Positions 37,788 to 47,817 are shown, counted from the first letter of the whole stretch. The stretch: 63,813 nucleotides of DNA, filler included, from 5 parts of 5 records of this genome joined end to end with filler, not necessarily neighbours in it; one strand, 5' to 3'. Notes: a model not told the origin generated them from the letters alone. Numbers and translations: made by a program.

Positions 37788-38714
37788 ATGAAAAAGATAA
37801 TCAGCTATATAATAGTACTAGTCGTTTTGACATCTTGTGAAAAGACCATTCCAATTGATGTGGAAATTCAGGATCCGAAAGTAGTCGTCAATGCATTGTT
37901 TGATAATACGAGAAACCTTGAAGTAAGTGTATCACGTTCTGCTATGATTGATAATCCAAACGGACCATTGAGTATTAATGATGCCGAGGTTAACTTATAC
38001 GAAAATGGCATTTTTTTAAGGCAGTTAACCAGCGAAGGATTTCAGGGACTTTACACCTGTACAGATACATTGCAACCAGATAATACCTACAGACTTGATG
38101 TTTCATGCGATATTGGAAGCGTAACAGTTAGCAATACAGTACCTGAAGTTGTTCCGGTAATATCGGTTGATTCCATAGTGGAAACTCAAATTGTAGATGA
38201 TTTTTGGGGTGAATCACTGGAAGCTTTGATGTTCTATTTTACATTCCAGGATAAACCCGGAGATCAGTATTATGTAATTAAAGTTGTTCGTGAAGGTTCA
38301 ATTCCAGAGCTGGGCTCAGAAGATTTGGGATATATGTTTTATTACGAGTATAATTATCAAAGCAACGCTTCCGGGATTGGAGATAATAGTTCTGTAGAGT
38401 TCTTTGAGTATTTACGTTTTCCTGATGGTTTGTTTGATGGCGAATTAAAAACATATAAGTTCGGTGTAGAATATGACCCTTACATGTTACAAGAATATAT
38501 AGATGAAGGATATACATTCAAATTGAAATTTTATTCCATTAGTGAAGATTTCTATAACTATTTACAAACTTATGATGCTTATTGGAATGCAGAAGGAAAC
38601 TTTTTTGCTGAAAATATCAACCTGTTTAGTAATGTTGAGGGTGGTTTGGGCATTTTTGCCGGTGCTGCTATGTACGAAGTGGAATTAGATATGATAGCAA
38701 TAATTACAAACTAG
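37788..38714 (+). CDS. DUF4249-family lipoprotein
   Basis: LTSC lipobox; C-terminal SNVEGGLGIF; coupled to the TonB receptor. Confidence 0.85.
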   Translation: MKKIISYIIVLVVLTSCEKTIPIDVEIQDPKVVVNALFDNTRNLEVSVSRSAMIDNPNGPLSINDAEVNLYENGIFLRQLTSEGFQGLYTCTDTLQPDNTYRLDVSCDIGSVTVSNTVPEVVPVISVDSIVETQIVDDFWGESLEALMFYFTFQDKPGDQYYVIKVVREGSIPELGSEDLGYMFYYEYNYQSNASGIGDNSSVEFFEYLRFPDGLFDGELKTYKFGVEYDPYMLQEYIDEGYTFKLKFYSISEDFYNYLQTYDAYWNAEGNFFAENINLFSNVEGGLGIFAGAAMYEVELDMIAIITN

Positions 38715-38756
38715 ATTAATTTTGCATGAGTCTATTCATCATAAAAAGTATTTTTC

Positions 38757-38764
38757 TATCTTTG
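38757..38764 (+). promoter_or_regulatory. Bacteroidota -7 promoter element for the tRNA locus
   Basis: TATCTTTG matches TAnnTTTG. Confidence 0.6.
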
Positions 38765-38817
38765 CAAACGCTTATCGCAAATTGGATGTAGCTCATTCCA
38801 GAAAAGTTTGTGATAAT

Positions 38818-38938
38818 AAGGCGGGATGTAGCTCAGTCCGGCTCCGATTTTACCAAATCTGAGATTTGGATTTAAAATCGTGAGTCCTCGAAAAAAGATG
38901 AAATCAAAGATTTCTGTTTTTTCGGGATTAGAGTACTG
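38818..38938 (+). repeat. 5' tRNA-Pro fragment interrupted in the D-loop by an 86-nt twin-hairpin insert
   Basis: 38818-38841 is identical to 38956-38979; insert at 38842-38927; 38928-38938 is identical to 38980-38990. Confidence 0.85.
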
Positions 38939-38959
38939 CTACATCTGGAAACGAAAAGG

Positions 38960-39037
38960 CGGGATGTAGCTCAGTCCGGTTAGAGTACTGGTCTGGGGGA
39001 CCAGGGGCCCCGAGTTCAAATCTCGGCATCCCGACCA
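38960..39037 (+). tRNA. tRNA-Pro(GGG)
   Basis: CGGGATG/CATCCCG acceptor stem, D-arm, CTGGT-CTGGGGG-ACCAG anticodon arm, CCGAG-TTCAAAT-CTCGG T-arm, ACCA end. Confidence 0.95.
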
Positions 39038-39081
39038 TGAAAAGGGTTAATCTATTGATTTATAGGTTAATCCTTTTTTTA

Positions 39082-39102
39082 TTGCTCCTACTTTGCTCCT
39101 AC
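39082..39102 (+). repeat. Putative integrase arm-type sites (left)
   Basis: TTGCTCCTAC x2 at 11-bp period; resembles the right-end TTGCCCCCAA x2. Confidence 0.6.
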
Positions 39103-39294
39103 ACGTCAATATTTCACACTTTTTATAAAATTATTACCTTTGTCCTAATGCTATTTGAATAGTATTAAAAGTTCAGGAAAGGGCAATATCTTAGTTTAGG
39201 ATTTTGTCCTTTTTGTTTACTCTTTCAAAAACTGTGATTTTTCAAAATTTTATTAACTTGCGTCCGAGCAAAGAAATTCTTTGTTTACTGACAT

Positions 39295-39328
39295 AAGGGG
39301 GCTACCATTTTTTGGTAGCCTTCTTTTT
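39295..39328. terminator. Intrinsic terminator (probably bidirectional)
   Basis: AAGGGGGCTACCA-TTTT-TGGTAGCCTTCTT hairpin followed by Ts, just downstream of the PRTase gene. Confidence 0.65.
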
Positions 39329-39340
39329 AATACAAAGCAA

Positions 39341-39988
39341 TTAATCTCTAGTTGTATTTCCGGTTAGAGGATTATATATAATTACCCCAGTATTTGCACC
39401 TTCAACTTGATCCGGGACATCTGCAAAGCTCTCAGTTTGAAGCATTGCACAACATTTAATGTTACTATCAGGGTGAGTTTCTTTGATTTTTTGATAGCAT
39501 GCCATCATGGTTCTTCCCTGTGTTACCACGTCATCCACAAGAAGTATATTTTTATGTGGTAAAATGATATTTAATACGTCAATACTTTCTTTATGTTCTG
39601 CAACTGTAACTCTATTTTCACTAGGTTGTCTAGATGAAGACCGAACGGCTTTATTTCTTTTTAAAAGAATAGAAATATCTTTTGCAAAACCAGCTTCTAC
39701 AATAGCTTTACAAATCTCTAATGATGGCCACAATGCATCATTTACCATTAAATGACTTCTAACTACTGGGACTAAAGTTACATCTTCATTTATAAACTCC
39801 TGAATTATTTCGGGCTTTATATTAAACTGTTCCAATAAAAAATTAATAGCTGCTTTCTTACCCCCTTTTATTGCGTCACAGATTTTTTTTGAGCGCATAG
39901 CACGTGTATCATTTTTCCGAGGATAATATTTGGCAAATGATAAATATTCGATTTCTATTCCTGGATCATTACTGCTAAGCAAAATCAA
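39341..39988 (-). CDS. ComF-like phosphoribosyltransferase (ShosT-like)
   Basis: LVPV, ILLVDDVVTQGRT PRPP-binding loop; overlaps dprA. Confidence 0.85.
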   Translation of the reverse strand: MILLSSNDPGIEIEYLSFAKYYPRKNDTRAMRSKKICDAIKGGKKAAINFLLEQFNIKPEIIQEFINEDVTLVPVVRSHLMVNDALWPSLEICKAIVEAGFAKDISILLKRNKAVRSSSRQPSENRVTVAEHKESIDVLNIILPHKNILLVDDVVTQGRTMMACYQKIKETHPDSNIKCCAMLQTESFADVPDQVEGANTGVIIYNPLTGNTTRD

Positions 39989-40646
39989 ATTTTTCGGTTA
40001 AACTTGGAATATTATCTAAAATGTAATCTTTATTTTCTTGAGTAAGTACAACAGCTCCATAATCAAGCATTTGTTTTGCCCATGAAATAGAATTGTCATT
40101 TAATAAATTTTCCATTATATAAAGATGTCTCCCTAATCTTAACGCTTCCCAACCCTGATGCCTAGTACCGCTCTTTTCACTTGCTTCAATAATTATAGTA
40201 GCATCTGAAATAAGCGCCATTGTTCTATTTCTAATCGGAAAGTTGCTTGGTTGAGCAGGATAACCAACTGGAAATTGTGAGATTGCTAAATGATTTTTTT
40301 TAATTTCTTCTAATAGTTCAAAATTTGACGAAGGATATGTTTTATTTAATGAAGTTCCCAAAACTGCTATAGTTTTACCATTTTCATTAATTGCAGTAGA
40401 ATGAGCAACCGTATCAATACCCTGTGCTAAACCACTTACAACAGTAATATCTCTTTGAACTAATAGTTTTGTGATATAGCTTGCTCTTTTCAGACCTAAT
40501 TTGCTTGGATTTCTTGATCCAACTACAGAAACCCTTCTTCCATTATCCAAAAGAGTAGCATCCCCAGAAACAAATAATTCATTAGGGGCATACTTCTTCT
40601 CAAAATCATTAAATTTTTGAGAATATTCTTTATAATCAAAGTTCAT
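39975..40646 (-). CDS. DprA/SMF (SLOG) protein lacking SAM and winged-helix domains (ShosA-like)
   Basis: VVGSR, VVSGLAQGIDTVAH, TIAVLG, FPIRNR, IIEA..KSGT; 223 aa. Confidence 0.9.
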   Translation of the reverse strand: MNFDYKEYSQKFNDFEKKYAPNELFVSGDATLLDNGRRVSVVGSRNPSKLGLKRASYITKLLVQRDITVVSGLAQGIDTVAHSTAINENGKTIAVLGTSLNKTYPSSNFELLEEIKKNHLAISQFPVGYPAQPSNFPIRNRTMALISDATIIIEASEKSGTRHQGWEALRLGRHLYIMENLLNDNSISWAKQMLDYGAVVLTQENKDYILDNIPSLTEKFDFA

Positions 40647-40777
40647 TTTTCAGGTGTTTATATATTAATTTGGTCAGAATTGAAATATCAAACAAACTAA
40701 CTTAATTTTTCTTAATTCACAATAACAATTTTATAAAATAACCTCTATTTTAATAGACATTGTAACAACATCTTTGT

Positions 40778-41464
40778 TTATACTTTATTCTCTCCAACCA
40801 ATATTGATTCAATTTCAGTTTGTTTTTGATTAATTAATTCTTTCTTTTCTGCAATTAGTTTTTGACAAATAGTAATTATAGAATTTATTTCAGAGCTGAA
40901 GTGAAACACCTCTTTTTCACCATTTTTTTCTGAATATATATCAGCTTGGTTTAATTCCCTGAGCACTACACCAATTGGGCGGTAATAAGGGCTATTTCGT
41001 ACTTTATTTACAATTTCTCGGACTGAATTAATATTAATATTTTCAGCATTAACAAAATCTTCAGGTTTCATGCGAAGGATATCAATAAATTCATTCTTCA
41101 TTTTCTTTAATTCTATTTTTTCTGCATATAATTCTTTTTTCAATCTATCAAATCGCTTTTTATTAATATAGTTTCCATACAAAGAGTTGATTTTGTCAGC
41201 CTTTATTACATAGAAAATTGTAAAACATCCAATCACAATAGTGATTAGATTTACAATGTTGTTCCAAATTGAATTTTTGGTAAAAACCTCGATTGGCTTA
41301 TCTAGTTGAGATTCCACCTTTTCAATATTCTTTTCTATAGTGCTGATTTTCTGAGCCAAGCTGTCAATTTGAATTTGCTGAGCAACAATAATAGAATCTT
41401 TACTATTTGATCCAATAATAAATGTAGTTGTAAATATGAAAGAAAAAAGAATTATATACTTCAT
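40778..41464 (-). CDS. Hypothetical membrane protein (cargo)
   Basis: Signal/TM segment, coiled coil, second TM segment; AT-rich. Confidence 0.65.
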   Translation of the reverse strand: MKYIILFSFIFTTTFIIGSNSKDSIIVAQQIQIDSLAQKISTIEKNIEKVESQLDKPIEVFTKNSIWNNIVNLITIVIGCFTIFYVIKADKINSLYGNYINKKRFDRLKKELYAEKIELKKMKNEFIDILRMKPEDFVNAENININSVREIVNKVRNSPYYRPIGVVLRELNQADIYSEKNGEKEVFHFSSEINSIITICQKLIAEKKELINQKQTEIESILVGENKV

Positions 41465-41466
41465 AC

Positions 41467-42015
41467 TTAATTAAATGCTTTGTGATTAAGTTCATTAATA
41501 ACTGTTAAGGCTTTATGTATTATTAAAATACTACTAAAAAAGCTGTCTAAACATAAATAGTAAGTAAGGGGTTCTTCCGATATTTGGTAAAAAAGCTTGT
41601 GATTTTTCATGCTACTGTGAGCTATTCTAGAATATATAAATCCTTCAAAAATATTTCTATAGCTTAATTCATTATCATTAACTTTTATGGGCCATTTTTT
41701 ATCTATTTCACTATTAAAAATCTCTACTATAGTCAAAAATTCATTTTTGAGCTGTTCATTTTTACAATGCTCGAGATAAGTTGATTTAAGTCTTATTAAA
41801 GAAATTGGTTCATTCCACTGAATAAAAAACCTTAAATTTAAAACATAGCTATCAATAGCTTCTTCATGTGGAATCTTGCAATTTTCAAGTTGTATGCCTG
41901 TTTCAAAATTATATGATAAGTTCCAACCATTGTTTGTCAATTCACTAATTAGCGTTGAATTACGAAGTTTTTCGAATTTTTCGTCATATAGTTTAAGAGT
42001 ACTGTCCAAGTCCAT
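41467..42015 (-). CDS. Hypothetical protein (cargo)
   Basis: 182-aa ORF, 2 nt upstream of the next gene. Confidence 0.65.
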   Translation of the reverse strand: MDLDSTLKLYDEKFEKLRNSTLISELTNNGWNLSYNFETGIQLENCKIPHEEAIDSYVLNLRFFIQWNEPISLIRLKSTYLEHCKNEQLKNEFLTIVEIFNSEIDKKWPIKVNDNELSYRNIFEGFIYSRIAHSSMKNHKLFYQISEEPLTYYLCLDSFFSSILIIHKALTVINELNHKAFN

Positions 42016-42331
42016 TAAATAAGAATTTAATTGTAATAAAGATAGAACTTATTTCACAATGTTTTAATAATTGAGACCCTTCTTTCGTGTAATTTTCAGG
42101 TATTACACTTTTGGAATTTTAAAACGTAGGATGTTTTTGCATTAATAAACAGTATTTTACAATATGTAGAAAGCAAAAGCCCCCACCTATTGTGGCAAGG
42201 GCTTTCATATTATGAACAATAGAAGTCTACATGCATAATAACACATTAGACAATTTCTTCTACAACCTATAAATATGTCATGGAAAGAATTTGTGGGGGG
42301 CGTAACGTATTCTGCATAAAAATTTATCGTC

Positions 42332-42715
42332 TCACAGTACCTTTTCATTTTTCTTTTCTTTTTTCAACTTCCTATTCAATACGATTTTTTCCCGGCATGC
42401 GTGTATTTCCTCTTTAGTACAATTACCAACTTTCTTATGTAAAATTTTATTGGCAATATAACTATCAGTTAATTGTTCTTTATGTCTTTGATTAACTTTC
42501 CGTTGCATTGCCCTTGCTTTTTCCGGGTTGGCCTTTCTCCATGCTTTGTCTCTCTGGTAAATAATATCCGGGATTGCTGATCTATATTTTATACTTCTTG
42601 CCTTGTCGCATTCAATGCAGTAATATGACAATCCAAATTTCTTAGTTTTATTCTTATAAAACTGCTCTAATGGTTTATATTGCTTACATTTGGTGCATCG
42701 TTTCTTTTGCTTCAT
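42332..42715 (-). CDS. Phage-type zinc-finger protein
   Basis: CTKC...EQFYK...YCIEC pattern, as in the N-termini of phage HNH/EndoVII-associated proteins; no nuclease motif visible. Confidence 0.65.
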   Translation of the reverse strand: MKQKKRCTKCKQYKPLEQFYKNKTKKFGLSYYCIECDKARSIKYRSAIPDIIYQRDKAWRKANPEKARAMQRKVNQRHKEQLTDSYIANKILHKKVGNCTKEEIHACREKIVLNRKLKKEKKNEKVL

Positions 42716-42748
42716 TATATCAAAATTTAGGGGCTAAGTGCCCCTTTA

Positions 42749-43336
42749 TTATGCTTCAATCCTTAAAATTCTTTGATAATCAATTTTACCATTAAAAACC
42801 AGCGTATCACGCCCGTAAAATAGTTCGTTTAAATCCTGCATCGCAATTGGTTTGTTTTGTAATTGCCCTAAAGTTGTTTGTAGCTCTTTGTGTATTGTAA
42901 TAAGCTGTTCCAACTGATTAACAATCTTGATTTGCCCGGGTGTTAGTTCATGTGTATACTTTTGAGTAAAAAAGCTTTTAGCATTGTTTAACTTAAATTC
43001 TCCTTTGTTGACAACCCAATTATCATAAGGTATTAAACCAACTAAATAAAATCTGTTATGTAAATCCCTGTGATTTCCCAACCAGCCATATTTTTGACCT
43101 AATATTTTTAGTTGTTGCTGCCTTAGTTCTTCAGGCAAGGCATCATATTTTGATTTCTCCTTTTTTGTTGCAATTTGTTGCGGCGTTTCCCTTCCAAAAA
43201 ATAAATTCAGCGTTGATTCTTTATCAGGGTCTAGACCGGCATCTTTAATAAGTACCCACAGGTTACTTAATTTTGGTTGTACCTCATTTACAAGCCCTAA
43301 GGCGTGGTTTAATTCGACTTTGTTAATCCATTTCAT
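42749..43336 (-). CDS. Hypothetical protein
   Basis: Probable ATG 43336 (MKWINK) overlapping the upstream stop. Confidence 0.6.
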   Translation of the reverse strand: MKWINKVELNHALGLVNEVQPKLSNLWVLIKDAGLDPDKESTLNLFFGRETPQQIATKKEKSKYDALPEELRQQQLKILGQKYGWLGNHRDLHNRFYLVGLIPYDNWVVNKGEFKLNNAKSFFTQKYTHELTPGQIKIVNQLEQLITIHKELQTTLGQLQNKPIAMQDLNELFYGRDTLVFNGKIDYQRILRIEA

Positions 43337-43565
43337 AATTATTAGTATTAAGTTCCTTTTGTACTGCCATTTCACACAATTTCTTATAACCATCTGAATT
43401 TTCGGCTGTAATGCCAATATGATTGGCAACGGACGCCAATGCTTCAAATGTGTTTGCTTCTCTTTCAATAAGTGATTGAATTTTTATTCTTTCACTTTGA
43501 ACACCCTCGTTTACTACCTCGTTGTAAACATTTGGGTACTTAAACTTTAATTCTTCTCTTGTCAT
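43323..43565 (-). CDS. Small protein resembling the scaffold region of phage prohead proteases
   Basis: MTREELKFKYPNVYNEVVNEGVQSERIKIQ pattern (recognised by eye). Confidence 0.5.
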   Translation of the reverse strand: MTREELKFKYPNVYNEVVNEGVQSERIKIQSLIEREANTFEALASVANHIGITAENSDGYKKLCEMAVQKELNTNNYEMD

Positions 43566-43665
43566 TTTTTAACTTTTATTTGTTCATAATCCCGGCTTGA
43601 CTTTACAAGTTCCGTTTTAATAATTCGCTTTCTGTGTTTCATATTATTGATTTTGATATTCATTT

Positions 43666-43920
43666 TCAGCTTTTAACATTGCTTTCGATCTTACTTCTAA
43701 TCAAATAGCAGATTGCCCAATTTATGGCACAATTTGGCCTTGTAAAGTATATTTCTTTGCCATACGAATGAGCGTAATTATTATTCACAATGACTTTGCG
43801 GTTGTCCTTAAATAAAATAATTGTTTCACCCTCTTTTTTAAAGTCAATTTGCCTGATTTGATTAAAAACACCTTTTGCGAAATTTTCCTGATTAAATCCT
43901 TTTATTTCATTTATTTTCAT
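43666..43920 (-). CDS. Hypothetical protein
   Basis: Short ORF in the rep operon; likely start MKINE. Confidence 0.5.
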   Translation of the reverse strand: MKINEIKGFNQENFAKGVFNQIRQIDFKKEGETIILFKDNRKVIVNNNYAHSYGKEIYFTRPNCAINWAICYLIRSKIESNVKS

Positions 43921-43930
43921 GCTTATAGTT

Positions 43931-44758
43931 TTATTTTCCCCAATCCTCAATGATGTTTGTTTCTTTGGTCTTTCCTTTCTCTATGAAATATTTGATATAT
44001 GGAATACCCTCTTTTTTATTCATTAGAAGTTTTCTAATGTTTAATACTTCACTTCTCCAAAAGCTATCATTTTGAGCAAATTTTAATGCTTCAATTATTT
44101 TAAAATGATTATATCCCTCTTTTATAAGTTTTTGATAGTCTTTTTCCCATTGATAAACCTCATTTGGTTTTGTAGGGTGCAAATGTTCCGGGAACCCCTC
44201 AATAACTTCTTTTAAATTTTCGGATATATTTATTTTATTATTTTTAATATCATTATTGTTATTGGTCGCTTTTTGACATTTTGTCGGTCGCTTTTCCTGT
44301 TTTTTGTCGGTCGCTTTTGGAATTGTTGTTTTATCTGTTCCTTTATTTACAATTGATTCAGGACTTTTTTTGTCGGTCGCTTTTATGCTTTTCTGTTGGT
44401 CGCTTTTTCCGGTTTTGTCGGTCGCTTGCCGGTCGCTTTTTAAATCTTCATCCTGATAACTTGCATAATTACAGATAGTTATTATACTAAATCTGTTGGT
44501 CGCTCGAGTCTGGATTTCTCCTGTTTTTATAAGTTTCTGTAAACAAGTTCTGATTTGTCGATCTGTAAGGCCGGTATCTTTGGATATGGTCGGGCGACTT
44601 GTAACTAATTGCCCTCTTTTTATCTCGATTCCCTGCCATTGTGCCGGGGCGTGGTTGGCCTTTAGTAGCAAATAAATCCATATTTGCACCATTTCAGGCC
44701 GTTGGAACCATTCCCATGCAATCAATGATCTGTGTATGCTTATCCAGCCCTTTTGCAT
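43931..44758 (-). CDS. Phage-type replication initiator (wHTH N-terminus, internal iterons)
   Basis: GWISIHR...WEW...YLLLKANH...I.RGQ..TS...QIRT.L..L...GEI N-terminus; internal DNA repeats. Confidence 0.78.
   Translation of the reverse strand: MQKGWISIHRSLIAWEWFQRPEMVQIWIYLLLKANHAPAQWQGIEIKRGQLVTSRPTISKDTGLTDRQIRTCLQKLIKTGEIQTRATNRFSIITICNYASYQDEDLKSDRQATDKTGKSDQQKSIKATDKKSPESIVNKGTDKTTIPKATDKKQEKRPTKCQKATNNNNDIKNNKINISENLKEVIEGFPEHLHPTKPNEVYQWEKDYQKLIKEGYNHFKIIEALKFAQNDSFWRSEVLNIRKLLMNKKEGIPYIKYFIEKGKTKETNIIEDWGK
44260..44504. repeat. Iteron array (8 copies of ~TGTCGGTCGCT), putative origin of replication
   Basis: Copies at 44260, 44282, 44305, 44371, 44394, 44416, 44427, 44494. Confidence 0.8.
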
Positions 44759-44759
44759 T

Positions 44760-45038
44760 CTACTTTACCAGCTTTTTGATTTCAGATTCTGAATAAAAAA
44801 CTTTGCCACCTATTTTTTTTGCCTTCAAAAATCCGTTTTTATTCCAACGCCAAAGGCTTGCCGGGCTTATTCCGAATAATTCTATAATTTCATTTCTTGT
44901 GTAAAGCTTTTCTTCTTGCTTGTCAAGTATTATTTGCGCTGTGTGAGTAGCTACAATATTGGCGAATTCTTGTAATTCCTTTCCGGTAACTGTTAGATTA
45001 ATTCCGGGGTGCTGATTGATTAAATTTGTGATGTCCAT
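44760..45038 (-). CDS. HTH excisionase/AlpA-like protein
   Basis: YTRNEIIELFGISPASLWRW...KIGGKVFY HTH_17 pattern. Confidence 0.85.
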   Translation of the reverse strand: MDITNLINQHPGINLTVTGKELQEFANIVATHTAQIILDKQEEKLYTRNEIIELFGISPASLWRWNKNGFLKAKKIGGKVFYSESEIKKLVK

Positions 45039-45091
45039 ATTTCAATATTTTTAAATTATTTTCACTACAAATTTATGTTGACTAACAAGCT

Positions 45092-45189
45092 GTTACCCAC
45101 AGGTAACAGGGTAACAAAAAAGGGTAACAATCCCGTTACCCTTAAATAGTCCAATGTTTAGAATATAACTTTAAATAAGATTGTTACCC
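45092..45189. promoter_or_regulatory. GTTACC(C)/(G)GGTAAC operator-like array upstream of xis
   Basis: Six copies in both orientations; TAAATTTG -7 element on the minus strand at ~45067-45074. Confidence 0.6.
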
Positions 45190-45894
45190 TGTGTAAAGCT
45201 CTTTTAGTTTTTCTTTTGCTTTTTCCTTTGCATTACCTTTCAATAAATTTACACAAATGTCCAAATTTTGCTTAGTTAAATATTGTTTTTGTGTTGCATT
45301 GTCTTTAGGTATTTCATACCACAGCCTTTTAAAATATGAGAATGAAACCTGCTGGTTATCTTTTTCGCTTTCAAAATATTTTTTAAGGCTCTTAAATCCT
45401 TTAGTATTATAATGTTTAGCTTCATTTTCAAAATACTTACACAAAACATATATAATACCGTCTGCCTGTTCAATACCTTGTTTTTGCTTTGGGGGCTCTG
45501 CTTTCTTAAAATCTGTAATAGATTCTTTTTTCATATCTAAAAATCCCAACCATTTATAAACAATTGGAATATTCTCTTTTAAACGGTGCTTAAATTTATG
45601 TTGTATGTGTTCATCCTTGAAAGGGTTCAACAATTTATTTAAACGTTCCATTTCCCAAATAACAAAATGCTTTTCGGGCTCTGTTGTGTCATTTAACCTG
45701 CGTTTATAGAATAATTCAAACTCACTTTCATTATACTTTTCTAGTGGTTTTGCTTGTTCTACTATCCGCTTTTCAGGTTCATTTTTTATACGTTTTTCCG
45801 GCTGTTCTTCATATAGTGAAACCTTTACACCTTCATTTGAATATTGGCTAAAATATGCAACTATTTCAAGCTCTTTTATTAGAAATTCATCCAT
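45184..45894 (-). CDS. Hypothetical protein downstream of the integrase (possible regulator)
   Basis: 236-aa ORF between int and xis. Confidence 0.6.
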   Translation of the reverse strand: MDEFLIKELEIVAYFSQYSNEGVKVSLYEEQPEKRIKNEPEKRIVEQAKPLEKYNESEFELFYKRRLNDTTEPEKHFVIWEMERLNKLLNPFKDEHIQHKFKHRLKENIPIVYKWLGFLDMKKESITDFKKAEPPKQKQGIEQADGIIYVLCKYFENEAKHYNTKGFKSLKKYFESEKDNQQVSFSYFKRLWYEIPKDNATQKQYLTKQNLDICVNLLKGNAKEKAKEKLKELYTG

Positions 45895-45901
45895 AACTTA
45901 A

Positions 45902-47182
45902 CTATTTAGCCGTTTTAATAAATTCGCCTTGTTTCTGCCAAAATTCAACTATCTTTTTAGCATGCTGTTCCGGTGAAACCTTAATGTATTTCAAAAATGC
46001 TGATTCCGTTTTATGGCCAGTTATTGACCTTATATGTAAGGTTTCCATACCAGCCAAATACATATTAGTAGCAAATGAACGGCGGGCGGTGTGGCTTCCA
46101 ACTAATTGATATTTGGGTAAATGTTTCAACACTGTTTTACCTGTTTTTTCATCAACTACCGGACTTTTAAAGGGTGCTATTGTAGTCAGTCCGGCAAGTT
46201 TGCAAGCTTCTTTTAAATACTCATTATATTTTTGGTTGCTGATTGGTTCCGGTAAATTGCCGTTGTATTTTTCCAAAACCTCTTTAACAATCGGGTGCAA
46301 TGGTATTACAACCCTGTTACCTGTTTTGGACTGCTTTACATAAATTAAATCATTACTGATATTCTCCTTTGTAATACTTGTTAAGTCTCCAAATCTTAAA
46401 CCTGTATATGAACCGACAATAAACATATCCCTAACTTTTTCTAATCTCTTATTCTCACTAAAATCATGGTTGTATAATTGCTTTAGTTCTGTTTCATCAA
46501 AGTGAATATTATCAGTTTCAATCTTTTTAACTTTCCAGCCTAAATATTTATCATACGGATTTTTACCATCGTATTTAGCATCATTCAGGAATATTCTCAA
46601 TGTGGTAATTTTGCGAACAATGGTGTTTTGATGCAATCCTTTTTTTCTAAGGAATTCCGTAAAATTCTCTTTAAATTCTTTGTCCATATCCACAAATCCA
46701 AGTTCTTTGCCGTTGTTTTCTTCTTTGCAATAATCTTTCAGGTAATTAAATGTTACTTCATATTCTCTTTTGACTTTGTAGGAAACCGGGTTCCCTGTTT
46801 TTTCATTGATTCGCTTATGAGAGTTATCAACAAAGTTTTGAACATAGCCGAATAGGGTTTCAGTGGATAAATACTTGTCAGGATTATAAAATTTATCTAT
46901 TTGGGTTTCAAGCCAGTTTTTATCTATTTGGGCTTTGTCAGTTGTATTGTCGTGTGCTTCTTCAATTGCTCTTTTTAGCCCTGAAAGTTTCTTTTGCGTG
47001 TCTTCCTTGCCGTCAAATGGAATTTCTCTTAAGGTCTGTTTGTTTGGGTTCCAATGTTCCGGCAATACTGTTATTGGTGTTTTAATTGATAGGTCAAATT
47101 GATTGCCCTGCTTAAATCTTATCCTAACAGTTGCTCGAGGGCTTTTCTTAGATACACGAATGAAATATTTGAATGTTGCCAT
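45902..47182 (-). CDS. Tyrosine integrase
   Basis: GLRFGD, HTARRSF, TGH, LKYIK catalytic residues; arm-binding and SAM-like N-terminal regions. Confidence 0.95.
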   Translation of the reverse strand: MATFKYFIRVSKKSPRATVRIRFKQGNQFDLSIKTPITVLPEHWNPNKQTLREIPFDGKEDTQKKLSGLKRAIEEAHDNTTDKAQIDKNWLETQIDKFYNPDKYLSTETLFGYVQNFVDNSHKRINEKTGNPVSYKVKREYEVTFNYLKDYCKEENNGKELGFVDMDKEFKENFTEFLRKKGLHQNTIVRKITTLRIFLNDAKYDGKNPYDKYLGWKVKKIETDNIHFDETELKQLYNHDFSENKRLEKVRDMFIVGSYTGLRFGDLTSITKENISNDLIYVKQSKTGNRVVIPLHPIVKEVLEKYNGNLPEPISNQKYNEYLKEACKLAGLTTIAPFKSPVVDEKTGKTVLKHLPKYQLVGSHTARRSFATNMYLAGMETLHIRSITGHKTESAFLKYIKVSPEQHAKKIVEFWQKQGEFIKTAK

Positions 47183-47219
47183 AATGAAAAGTTTAAAAGT
47201 TCACTACAAATATAGGAAT

Positions 47220-47240
47220 TTGCCCCCAACTTGCCCCCAA
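47220..47240 (+). repeat. Putative integrase arm-type sites (right)
   Basis: TTGCCCCCAA x2 at 11-bp period. Confidence 0.6.
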
Positions 47241-47436
47241 TATTTTAAAATTAATGAAAAGTAGTGAAAAGAGTATAATTATAAAAAATCACAAATACCC
47301 AATATATACTAGCCAAATGAAATATTAAGATTTCATCTGATTTCTTTTAATTAGGTTAATTTTCGTTTCGGCATCCCGACTGAAAATTAGAAACCGTTCA
47401 ATTAAGTTTGGACGGTTTTTTTAGTATAAGGGGCAA

Positions 47437-47551
47437 GCCCCGAGTGCCGAAAACACCAAATTTTAATTTGGATTGTTTTCGTGCATTCACGATTTACCAT
47501 ACAAATTGAAAATTTGTGTAAATCGGAATTCAAATCTCGGCATCCCGACCA
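47437..47551 (+). repeat. 3' tRNA-Pro fragment interrupted in the T-arm by an 84-nt twin-hairpin insert
   Basis: GCCCCGAG (47437-47444), insert 47445-47528, then TTCAAATCTCGGCATCCCGACCA. Confidence 0.85.
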
Positions 47552-47817
47552 TGAAACGGGTTAATCTATTATTTTTTAGGTTAATCCGTTTTTTTTTTGC
47601 CCGGGAAAACAATTAGATTCAAATTTTCTTAGAATTATCCGATATCCATTTATCTCGGATCTAATATCTCTTAATTACTTTTTTGACTGTCAAATTTACT
47701 TGATATGAAAAATGATTTATTCAAGTATCTAGATTATTAAATCCGTTCGGTCATTTTGTCAATTTGATTAAATTTGTACGGCTTTTGATAATGGGTTACT
47801 TAAAAAATTAAAATATT

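Follow-up and report, generated by a model that had tools for sequence, protein, structure and literature searches.

Twin-hairpin palindromes in displaced tRNA fragments of Bacteroidota, probable relics of tRNA-nested cassettes with a mini GIY-YIG nuclease gene

An intact tRNA-Pro(GGG) gene lies within a 63,813-nt stretch of DNA (the window; five parts of five records of one genome, joined with filler), accompanied on either side by a partial copy of itself, and each of these two copies is split by an insert of about 85 nt that folds into a pair of hairpins. What are these inserts, and why do they sit in broken copies of a tRNA gene? A preliminary description, made from the sequence of the window, had presented them as a structure-defined DNA element that targets tRNA sequence, and had listed a mobile element, a structured RNA and a decoy for an attachment (att) site as possible explanations. 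Here, we find that the inserts belong to a widespread family of palindromes, whose tRNA-linked copies probably derive from small cassettes that nest in tRNA genes and encode a minimal GIY-YIG nuclease.

Both inserts were recovered at the positions first described, between tRNA flanks that are contiguous in the intact gene (Table 1). Upstream, a 24-nt match to the intact gene ends after tRNA base 20 and is continued beyond the insert, which thus splits the D-loop at CCGG^TTAG. Downstream, an exact 8-nt copy of the variable loop and T-stem (gccccgag, 47437-47444), preceded by 7 bases that match more loosely, is continued beyond the insert, which here sits at CGAG^TTCA, the border of T-stem and T-loop. 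The absence of a target duplication holds at the immediate borders, but each insert is itself embedded in a partial tRNA duplication of about 32-35 bp. Each hairpin opens with 3 bp and a bulge of 1 nt, continues with 8 bp that begin CGA and a bulge of 2-3 nt, and closes with 6-7 bp and a small loop; within each insert, the second hairpin mirrors the first. Folding as single-stranded DNA (ssDNA) bore out this twin geometry, with energies of -22.6 and -23.7 kcal/mol (z -7.08 and -7.32; 0 of 200 shuffles as stable), and the complementary strands of both inserts fold equally well. Perfect 8-bp CGA...TCG stems occur in the window in these four hairpins only. A covariance model of the hairpins likewise matched only the two insert sites in the window, at 74.7-84.1 bits on either strand (5' element, 84.1 bits on the plus and 74.7 on the minus strand; 3' element, 77.6 and 75.8 bits), the next-best match reaching 17.8 bits (E 0.098). 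Rfam, applied to the window at gathering score, returned tRNA only and no family for the inserts.

An alignment of 65 diverse copies, drawn from the genome scan described below, gave the consensus TCCCGA...TCG-n-GGA for the first hairpin, followed directly by TCC-n-CGA...TCGGGA for the second, with TNC-CGA...TCG-n-GNA as the conserved foot of each. Paired cells make up 95.7% of this alignment, versus 75.3 +/- 0.5 in shuffles, and two-sided changes number 413, versus 110.7 +/- 10.6 (0 of 500 shuffles reach 413); one-sided changes number 8, and G-U pairs occupy 15 of 2251 cells. Shifting the partner columns abolishes the pairing signal. The columns of the scan pattern are invariant by construction, and the covariation sits in the free columns. 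Since the covariation is Watson-Crick only, the dyad is symmetric and both strands score alike, the conserved structure is a DNA palindrome and not an RNA. The element is a two-fold symmetric DNA palindrome of about 85 bp, made of two back-to-back bulged hairpins.

A 20-base pattern drawn from the inserts was scanned over one genome per species (185,579 species) and gave 118 loci. The names of 78 of the 80 loci listed place them in Bacteroidota lineages, and the other 2 bear the label Chlorobiota; the carriers include Salinivirgaceae, Prolixibacteraceae/Draconibacterium, Lentimicrobiaceae, Rikenellaceae, Bacteroidales, Fluviicola and others. A script found a clean second hairpin in at least 120 of 137 pattern matches; in most of the others that hairpin carries a mismatch, and one appears to be a chance match. 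The 17 matches lacking a clean second hairpin were excluded from the flank analyses and identical places were merged, which gave 128 elements. Covariance-model matches in five carrier genomes numbered 34, 107, 24, 12 and 4 (both strands counted, 150 candidates scored per genome), and copy numbers in these genomes run from roughly 2 to more than 50. Several metagenome-assembled genomes each hold the same element variant at 2-3 loci. These results confirm that the inserts belong to a real Bacteroidota-wide palindrome family. A looser twin-hairpin pattern retrieved 103 stretches from viral contigs, none with two good stems, and these were set aside as chance matches. A search for solitary hairpins flanking a gene gave mostly twins with a mismatched partner and no gene bounded by single hairpins, and the neighbouring DUF4249 protein, used as query in a genome scan, brought up no relative. 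In sequencing run X1, at loose ends at 38877/38927, other contigs fuse hairpin-B-like sequence to a 5' fragment of tRNA-fMet, and therefore further copies probably exist at other tRNAs of the same community or genome. Run X2 yielded small shares only, short pieces resembling hairpin B and tRNA, and was not used as evidence.

The family is tied to tRNA sequence by a rule of polarity. For 59 of the 128 elements, an intact tRNA within 700 nt contains the two flanks as one uninterrupted sequence, and every one of these elements lies beside its intact cognate tRNA gene. All 44 upstream elements have their junction at tRNA bases 6-21, the D-arm region (after base 15 in 23 cases, base 19 or 20 in 16, and bases 21, 10, 6 or 18 in 5), and 13 of the 15 downstream elements have it at the T-stem/T-loop border; the two exceptions are a D-loop junction in a tRNA-Ala array (L194) and a junction in a repeated downstream flank (L129). 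The junction reads G^TT in 45 of the 59, G^CT in 9 and otherwise in 5, with G as the last flank base in 58, in line with the original proposal of a repeated, structure-defined element tied to tRNA sequence at G^T. On its outer side the element is bordered by the long tRNA end and its flank, on its inner side mostly by just 5-19 tRNA bases. It always sits in the displaced copy and never in the working tRNA, and its in silico removal restores a predicted whole tRNA in 2 of 120 cases only. The closest relative found, G001, has 15 strong copies, of which 12 show the tRNA layout, at ten tRNA species, and 3 lie in short arrays. Simple decay of tandem tRNA duplicates is ruled out by this polarity.

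The remaining 69 elements have no intact tRNA neighbour. In ten of them the flanks resemble a D-arm or a T-loop; at least 26 mark a boundary between units in tandem arrays of 7- to 16-mers, and so, by eye, do about 14 of 33 elements classed as "other" (array-located copies include L104, L130, L145, L204, L173 and many others). Genome G002 alone holds at least about 55 near-identical copies of this array type. One array unit, TCGTGGA, is identical to the hairpin foot.

Some tRNA-linked loci carry inserts of other kinds. At L231 (G001, tRNA-Val) and L247 (G006, tRNA-Pro CGG), the T-loop of the displaced 3' fragment holds another conserved insert of about 50 nt, which starts CCGACGAC, has an AGGAGG...ATG stretch and once directly follows a twin-hairpin element. 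At L251 (G003, tRNA-Asp), a shorter, GC-richer twin hairpin of 44 nt and of other sequence lies at G53^T54 beside a GIY-YIG gene. At L257 (G001, contig C80, 1035-1195), an unrelated sequence of about 130 nt has inserted into hairpin A of a twin element behind tRNA-Phe.

A profile search placed a GIY-YIG open reading frame (ORF) within 450 nt of 15 of the 128 elements, so the co-occurrence with such nucleases that had been raised at the outset is real. These genes encode proteins of 77-110 aa that consist of the catalytic domain only (Pfam PF01541, E 1e-14 to 2e-20). Genome coordinates place the gene directly beside the element in three units of G004, two of G003, two of G005 and one of G001, and homologues adjoin elements in Draconibacterium (L151, L157, L182), Fluviicola (L168), Salinivirgaceae (L117, L147), Carboxylicivirga (L120), Lentimicrobiaceae (L128) and others. 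Tandem cassette units measure 350-415 bp, and the gene is flanked by the element on both sides. Downstream of tRNA-His in G004, three units follow one another with a 415-bp period, each in the order tRNA 3' end, terminator, 95-aa ORF, short tRNA piece and twin hairpin; the ORF (PF01541, E 1e-14) extends into hairpin A. The 5'-type units run from the outer tRNA start through the element, 6-14 tRNA bases, about 10-20 nt and the ORF to the tRNA, whose own first 10-20 bases form the last codons and stop of the ORF. The solved structures nearest to the nuclease are the UPF0213 proteins 1zg2 and 1ywl (1e-7 and 4e-6), which Dunin-Horkawicz et al. (PMC1564403) assign to the bacterial Slx1-like, minimal GIY-YIG group.

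The palindrome is not found in every such cassette. Ten further GIY-YIG regions were inspected; six immediately follow a tRNA of the same orientation, and five of these six lack the twin element and have other hairpins or none at the same site. L248 and L250 (G004, tRNA-Lys) and L254 (G005, tRNA-Leu) hold inside the GIY-YIG cassette a nearly full-length tRNA-like copy whose anticodon arm has given way to a mini-hairpin with the TCCCG or TTCCG foot also seen in the twin element and whose D-arm contains the ORF stop codon; L248 and L250 have no insert at the T-loop site. The existence of cassettes without the twin element indicates that the palindrome is a frequent, not an obligatory, cassette module. 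The profile search found no GIY-YIG ORF in the window, and the copies there are therefore read as relics. They are inert-looking.

Collectively, these findings show that the early picture of an 85-nt element inserting on its own into tRNA half-copies was incomplete: the tRNA-linked copies are one end of a larger unit, which duplicates part of the tRNA and, when complete, carries the nuclease gene. The two inserts of the window are accordingly best read as probable gene-less relics, or non-autonomous forms, of tRNA-nested cassettes with a mini GIY-YIG nuclease and the palindrome at one end. Besides the nuclease gene, a complete cassette of 350-415 bp would bring a duplicate of whichever tRNA end it displaces, so that one tRNA stays intact; the palindrome would cut the displaced outer end off from a short inner piece. 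Entry at the D-arm would leave the cassette upstream of the tRNA, entry at G53^T54 downstream of it.

How such a unit might move can be proposed only tentatively. The nuclease would recognise the hairpins in ssDNA, as Ssn nucleases do with NTS hairpins, and would cut 5' of the first hairpin. Since either strand, read 5' to 3', presents the same pair of hairpins, this would give one cut per strand and one per border, at just the junctions observed. Repair of the break against a cassette-bearing copy, or recombination, would spread the unit, and as each round would leave an intact tRNA again, further rounds would build up tandem units. It is conceivable, though rather doubtful, that the twin hairpin is a recognition and cutting site in ssDNA and that the nuclease gene, the palindrome and the spare tRNA end together form an autonomous mobile element of 350-415 bp. 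Such an element would home into the D-loop or T-loop without killing the tRNA, amplify in tandem and decay to gene-less palindromes.

The two relics of the window differ in history. The 5' relic is orthologous in G001, G007, G008 and G009, all independently assembled, and is gene-less in all five genomes; it is therefore old. G001 shares the promoter-like box (which we take to fit the Bacteroidota -7 consensus TAnnTTTG), the degenerate fragment and the element-split 5' copy. Its 5' element differs from that of the window at 4 of 86 positions, the 17-nt spacer being far more diverged. That spacer, whose position is occupied by the ORF in Draconibacterium orientale DSM 25947 (L157), is strongly variable among the orthologues, and hairpin B with the next 9 bases (38885-38936) is nearly invariant in all five species-level genomes.

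The 3' module is absent from the four relatives that share the 5' relic. The G001 locus has neither this module nor the integrase island; its tRNA ends with the same 13 bases that form the right island repeat of the window, followed by the terminator that follows that repeat. This empty locus shows that the island is a separate, later insertion bounded by the two 13-bp repeats (39023-39035 and 47368-47380), and the inserts are thus not its att site. The first account of a tRNA-Pro bracketed by two split half-copies also needs amending. Both split copies are real, but insert-free fragments are present as well (38784-38799 and 47368-47380), and the island intervenes between the tRNA and the downstream copy. 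The island's repeat is the fragment at 47368-47380 and not the insert-bearing copy, which lies 57 nt beyond 47380, on the far side of the terminator that G001 has after its tRNA. The island itself (8.3 kb) encodes a tyrosine integrase, an excisionase-like HTH_17 protein and a ShosTA defence pair (Pfam and PADLOC; ShosA 6e-74, ShosT 1e-18), together with six ORFs lacking any family match, and its arm beside the tRNA carries a tRNA 3' end with CCA and a terminator like the native one of relatives. Behind tRNA-Pro(GGG), the terminator of G007 and G008 differs from that of G001 and is of the gggttaatc type, the same that follows the insert-bearing 3' copy of the window. A 3' cassette (new 3' end, terminator, short tRNA piece and element) may have displaced the native 3' end and terminator and afterwards lost its nuclease gene; G001 would later have deleted the displaced part, and the bases just before it remain in G001. 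We infer that the 3' relic is younger than the 5' relic and that the ShosTA island arrived later still, between the tRNA and the 3' relic. The two elements differ in age, which rules out a composite cassette with one of them at each end. The element as a part of integrase islands was rejected too, as the window integrase matched by tblastn only one locus (L182) among L104-L236.

Table 1. Features of the tRNA-Pro(GGG) locus in the window
Feature	Position	Strand	Remarks
Promoter-like box TATCTTTG (TATnTTTG)	38757..38764	+	Upstream of all tRNA fragments; conserved in 5/5 aligned orthologous loci
Degenerate third 5' tRNA-Pro fragment, insert-free	38784..38799	+	Repeat family D4, 71% identity; present in G001 too
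Displaced outer 5' tRNA-Pro copy	38818..38841	+	4 upstream bases and tRNA bases 1-20; 100% identical to 38956-38979
5' twin-hairpin element, 86 nt	38842..38927	.	Hairpin A 38842-38884, hairpin B 38885-38927
Short inner tRNA piece, 11 nt	38928..38938	+	D-arm continuation past junction
17-nt spacer	38939..38955	+	Position of GIY-YIG gene in complete cassettes elsewhere
Intact tRNA-Pro(GGG)	38960..39037	+	ARAGORN; Rfam RF00005, 64 bits
Left 13-bp direct repeat of island, inside tRNA 3' end	39023..39035	+	Same 13 bases at 47368-47380
Integrase island	39036..47367	-	ShosT 39341-39988, ShosA 39975-40646, HTH_17 44760-45038, tyrosine integrase 45902-47182
Right 13-bp island repeat, displaced tRNA 3' end	47368..47380	+	Insert-free tRNA fragment
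Terminator hairpin	47381..47422	+	Directly 3' of tRNA-Pro in G001; read as brought by 3' cassette
Short inner tRNA piece before 3' element	47430..47444	+	Comparison with intact tRNA
3' twin-hairpin element, 84 nt	47445..47528	.	Hairpin A 47445-47485, hairpin B 47486-47528
Displaced outer 3' tRNA-Pro copy, T-loop to CCA	47529..47551	+	Repeat D1, 90% identity over 72 nt to 39012-39083
Terminator, native type behind tRNA-Pro(GGG) in relatives	47552..47598	+	86% (G007) and 81% (G008) identity over 72-74 nt including stretch

Several observations weigh against a cassette origin of the inserts. No cleavage, excision or insertion event was observed, and no clean filled/empty pair was found for the bare palindrome or the gene-bearing cassette. 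No GIY-YIG ORF lies within 450 nt of 113 of the 128 copies, the cassettes L248 and L250 exist without the palindrome, and about a third of all copies lie in short tandem arrays and not in tRNA sequence. In G002 the L134 nuclease query had no match despite at least about 55 element copies; together with the array copies, this indicates that the element may also spread or persist without a cassette. The scan pattern stems from the window itself and could favour one subfamily in the sample. In three of the five orthologues hairpin A has been deleted, shortened or mutated; the twin structure as a whole thus shows no sign of lasting constraint. At the 3' end of the locus, the absence of the module from G001 looks like a secondary deletion, and the identity of the insert-bearing 3' copy to the island arm (90%, versus 86% and 81% to the outgroup loci) leaves room for its origin from a relative of the island.

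Some of these points suit a stand-alone palindrome, similar to a miniature inverted-repeat transposable element (MITE) or a REPIN, that prefers G^TT in tRNA-like sequence and survives in dead fragments, the cassettes being mere neighbours or a source of enzyme in trans. The many copies remote from any GIY-YIG ORF, the near-identical copies at several loci within single genomes, the non-tRNA contexts and the use of the same T-loop site by other small inserts would all be expected of it. It is nevertheless unlikely, as it accounts poorly for the strict polarity of the junctions (44/44 upstream, 13/15 downstream), and partial duplications with a 5-19-nt inner piece are unexpected from random hits on decaying tandem tRNAs. 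Moreover, the tRNA junctions lack a target-site duplication, no empty site for the bare element was found, and no transposase gene is adjacent, Y1 genes being present in four of five genomes and beside none of the listed copies.

The palindrome could instead be a structural spacer that serves the host or the cassette by breaking up a repeated tRNA tract, either to keep recombination from deleting the unit or to make integrases and tRNA-processing enzymes pass over the dead copy; it would be a decoy or insulator and not a nuclease site. Its confinement to the displaced copy, the exact splitting of the T-arm or D-arm, the entry of the island into the working tRNA rather than the split copy, and the near-invariance of hairpin B with its next 9 bases are in keeping with such a role. 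Yet foot sequence, bulge geometry and dyad symmetry are kept across many genera, which suggests recognition by a protein; the copies in short arrays have no tRNA tract to protect, and hairpin A has decayed in three of five orthologues. We consider a spacer improbable.

A structured RNA, acting as a processing signal in the leader or trailer of the pre-tRNA or as a small RNA, was among the first suggestions, and both the strong fold and the position of the 5' copy between a conserved promoter-like box and the tRNA, where it is probably transcribed in the leader, fit it. The scarcity of G-U pairs and of one-sided changes, the equal fit of both strands to the model, the lack of an Rfam family at gathering score and the placement of copies on both sides of tRNAs, beyond terminators and in arrays make it very improbable. 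An assembly artefact or chimera is a negligible concern, for although tRNA repeats can mislead assemblers, an 18,561-nt Logan contig of run X1, from a second assembler, covers 38600-47800 with 0 differences (X1 may be the source sample, so it is not independent), the 5' arrangement recurs in four other assemblies, and more than 100 family members occur in other genomes.

If the cassette origin is correct, many odd partial tRNA copies and palindromes beside Bacteroidota tRNA genes would share one cause, which would help annotation. A catalytic-domain-only GIY-YIG nuclease with a DNA hairpin as partner would then drive a tiny selfish element nested in tRNA genes, and an autonomous element of 350-415 bp would be among the smallest known. 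Cultured hosts such as D. orientale offer a testable system for how Ssn-like nucleases relate to mobility, and may yield new structure-specific ssDNA nucleases as tools.

Full-text literature searches (for PMC11893778, covering the main text) found no description of tRNA-nested GIY-YIG cassettes with palindromes, and selfish DNA of this kind is apparently undescribed. Comparison with known systems agrees with the initial view that no named family matches. Like integrase islands that target tRNA genes, the unit enters a tRNA gene, brings a replacement end and leaves the displaced fragment as a direct repeat; unlike them, it is 20 times smaller, has no integrase, enters at the D-arm on the 5' side too, and its displaced copy is split by a palindrome. 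The element has inverted ends like a classical MITE, but its tRNA junctions, where tRNA sequence runs on without a break from one flank to the other, lack a target-site duplication. The palindrome-associated transposable elements (PATE) derived from IS200/IS605 have subterminal hairpins that share one orientation on one strand, with a conserved target of 4-5 nt at the left end, whereas here the hairpins are terminal, mirror-image and alike on both strands, and only the last flank base is conserved (G, 58/59). Integron attC sites are single imperfect palindromes with RYYYAAC ... GTTRRRY ends, in cassette arrays beside intI. The attC likeness originally suggested therefore does not go beyond the G^TT junction, since the present ends are TCCCGA...TCGGGA and the hairpins are two and separate.

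Repetitive extragenic palindromic (REP) sequences, the second likeness suggested, resemble the element in more respects. REP/BIME (REPIN) sequences are short imperfect palindromes, often inverted pairs, at tens per genome, and flank a dedicated nuclease gene, RAYT, thought to process them as single-stranded hairpins. The heads differ, being T-N-C-CGA in 65 of 65 aligned copies and not GTAG or CGTC (PMC3733652). The partner also differs, a GIY-YIG protein and not a Y1 HUH nuclease, and the tie to the D-loop and T-loop of tRNAs is strong. PF01797 (Y1) genes adjoin none of the listed elements, and G005 has elements and no Y1 gene.

The Seg proteins of T-even phages have a separate DNA-binding domain besides the catalytic domain, unlike the catalytic-domain-only partner proteins described here, for which the SegE_GIY-YIG model gives 17.6 bits (cut-off, 25 bits). 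They are free-standing GIY-YIG homing endonucleases, and in abstract-level accounts SegB sits in the T4 tRNA gene cluster (PMC2330249, PMC13096335), which makes it, like the present nuclease, a selfish GIY-YIG gene among tRNA genes with nuclease-driven copying of gene and flanks. The segmental amplification linked to SegB in these accounts resembles the tandem cassette units. The abstracts mention no palindrome module or partial tRNA duplication for Seg genes, and the hosts here are bacterial chromosomes rather than T-even phages.

Among published systems, the closest analogue is that of the Ssn nucleases with their NTS hairpins. According to the main text of Chenal et al. 2025 (PMC11893778), Ssn nucleases such as SsnA of Neisseria meningitidis are single-domain GIY-YIG proteins (about 100 aa, CDD family cd10448) that bind the hairpin repeats (NTS/SRM) flanking their gene and cut beside the hairpin, in ssDNA only. 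That main text contains 0 occurrences of "tRNA" and of "Bacteroid", and the SRM search motif given there matches 0 of the 128 elements (15-nt flanks included, both strands). Unlike the Ssn repeat, the one described here is a mirror pair of long, AT-rich bulged hairpins, and the unit as a whole lies nested within tRNA genes, part of which it duplicates. In both systems, on the evidence of that text, a small single-domain GIY-YIG protein is encoded by a gene flanked by a hairpin repeat with many gene-less copies elsewhere, and the hairpin feet are similar, ATTCCC...GGGAAT in Ssn and TCCCGA...TCGGGA or TTCCGA...TCGGAA here.

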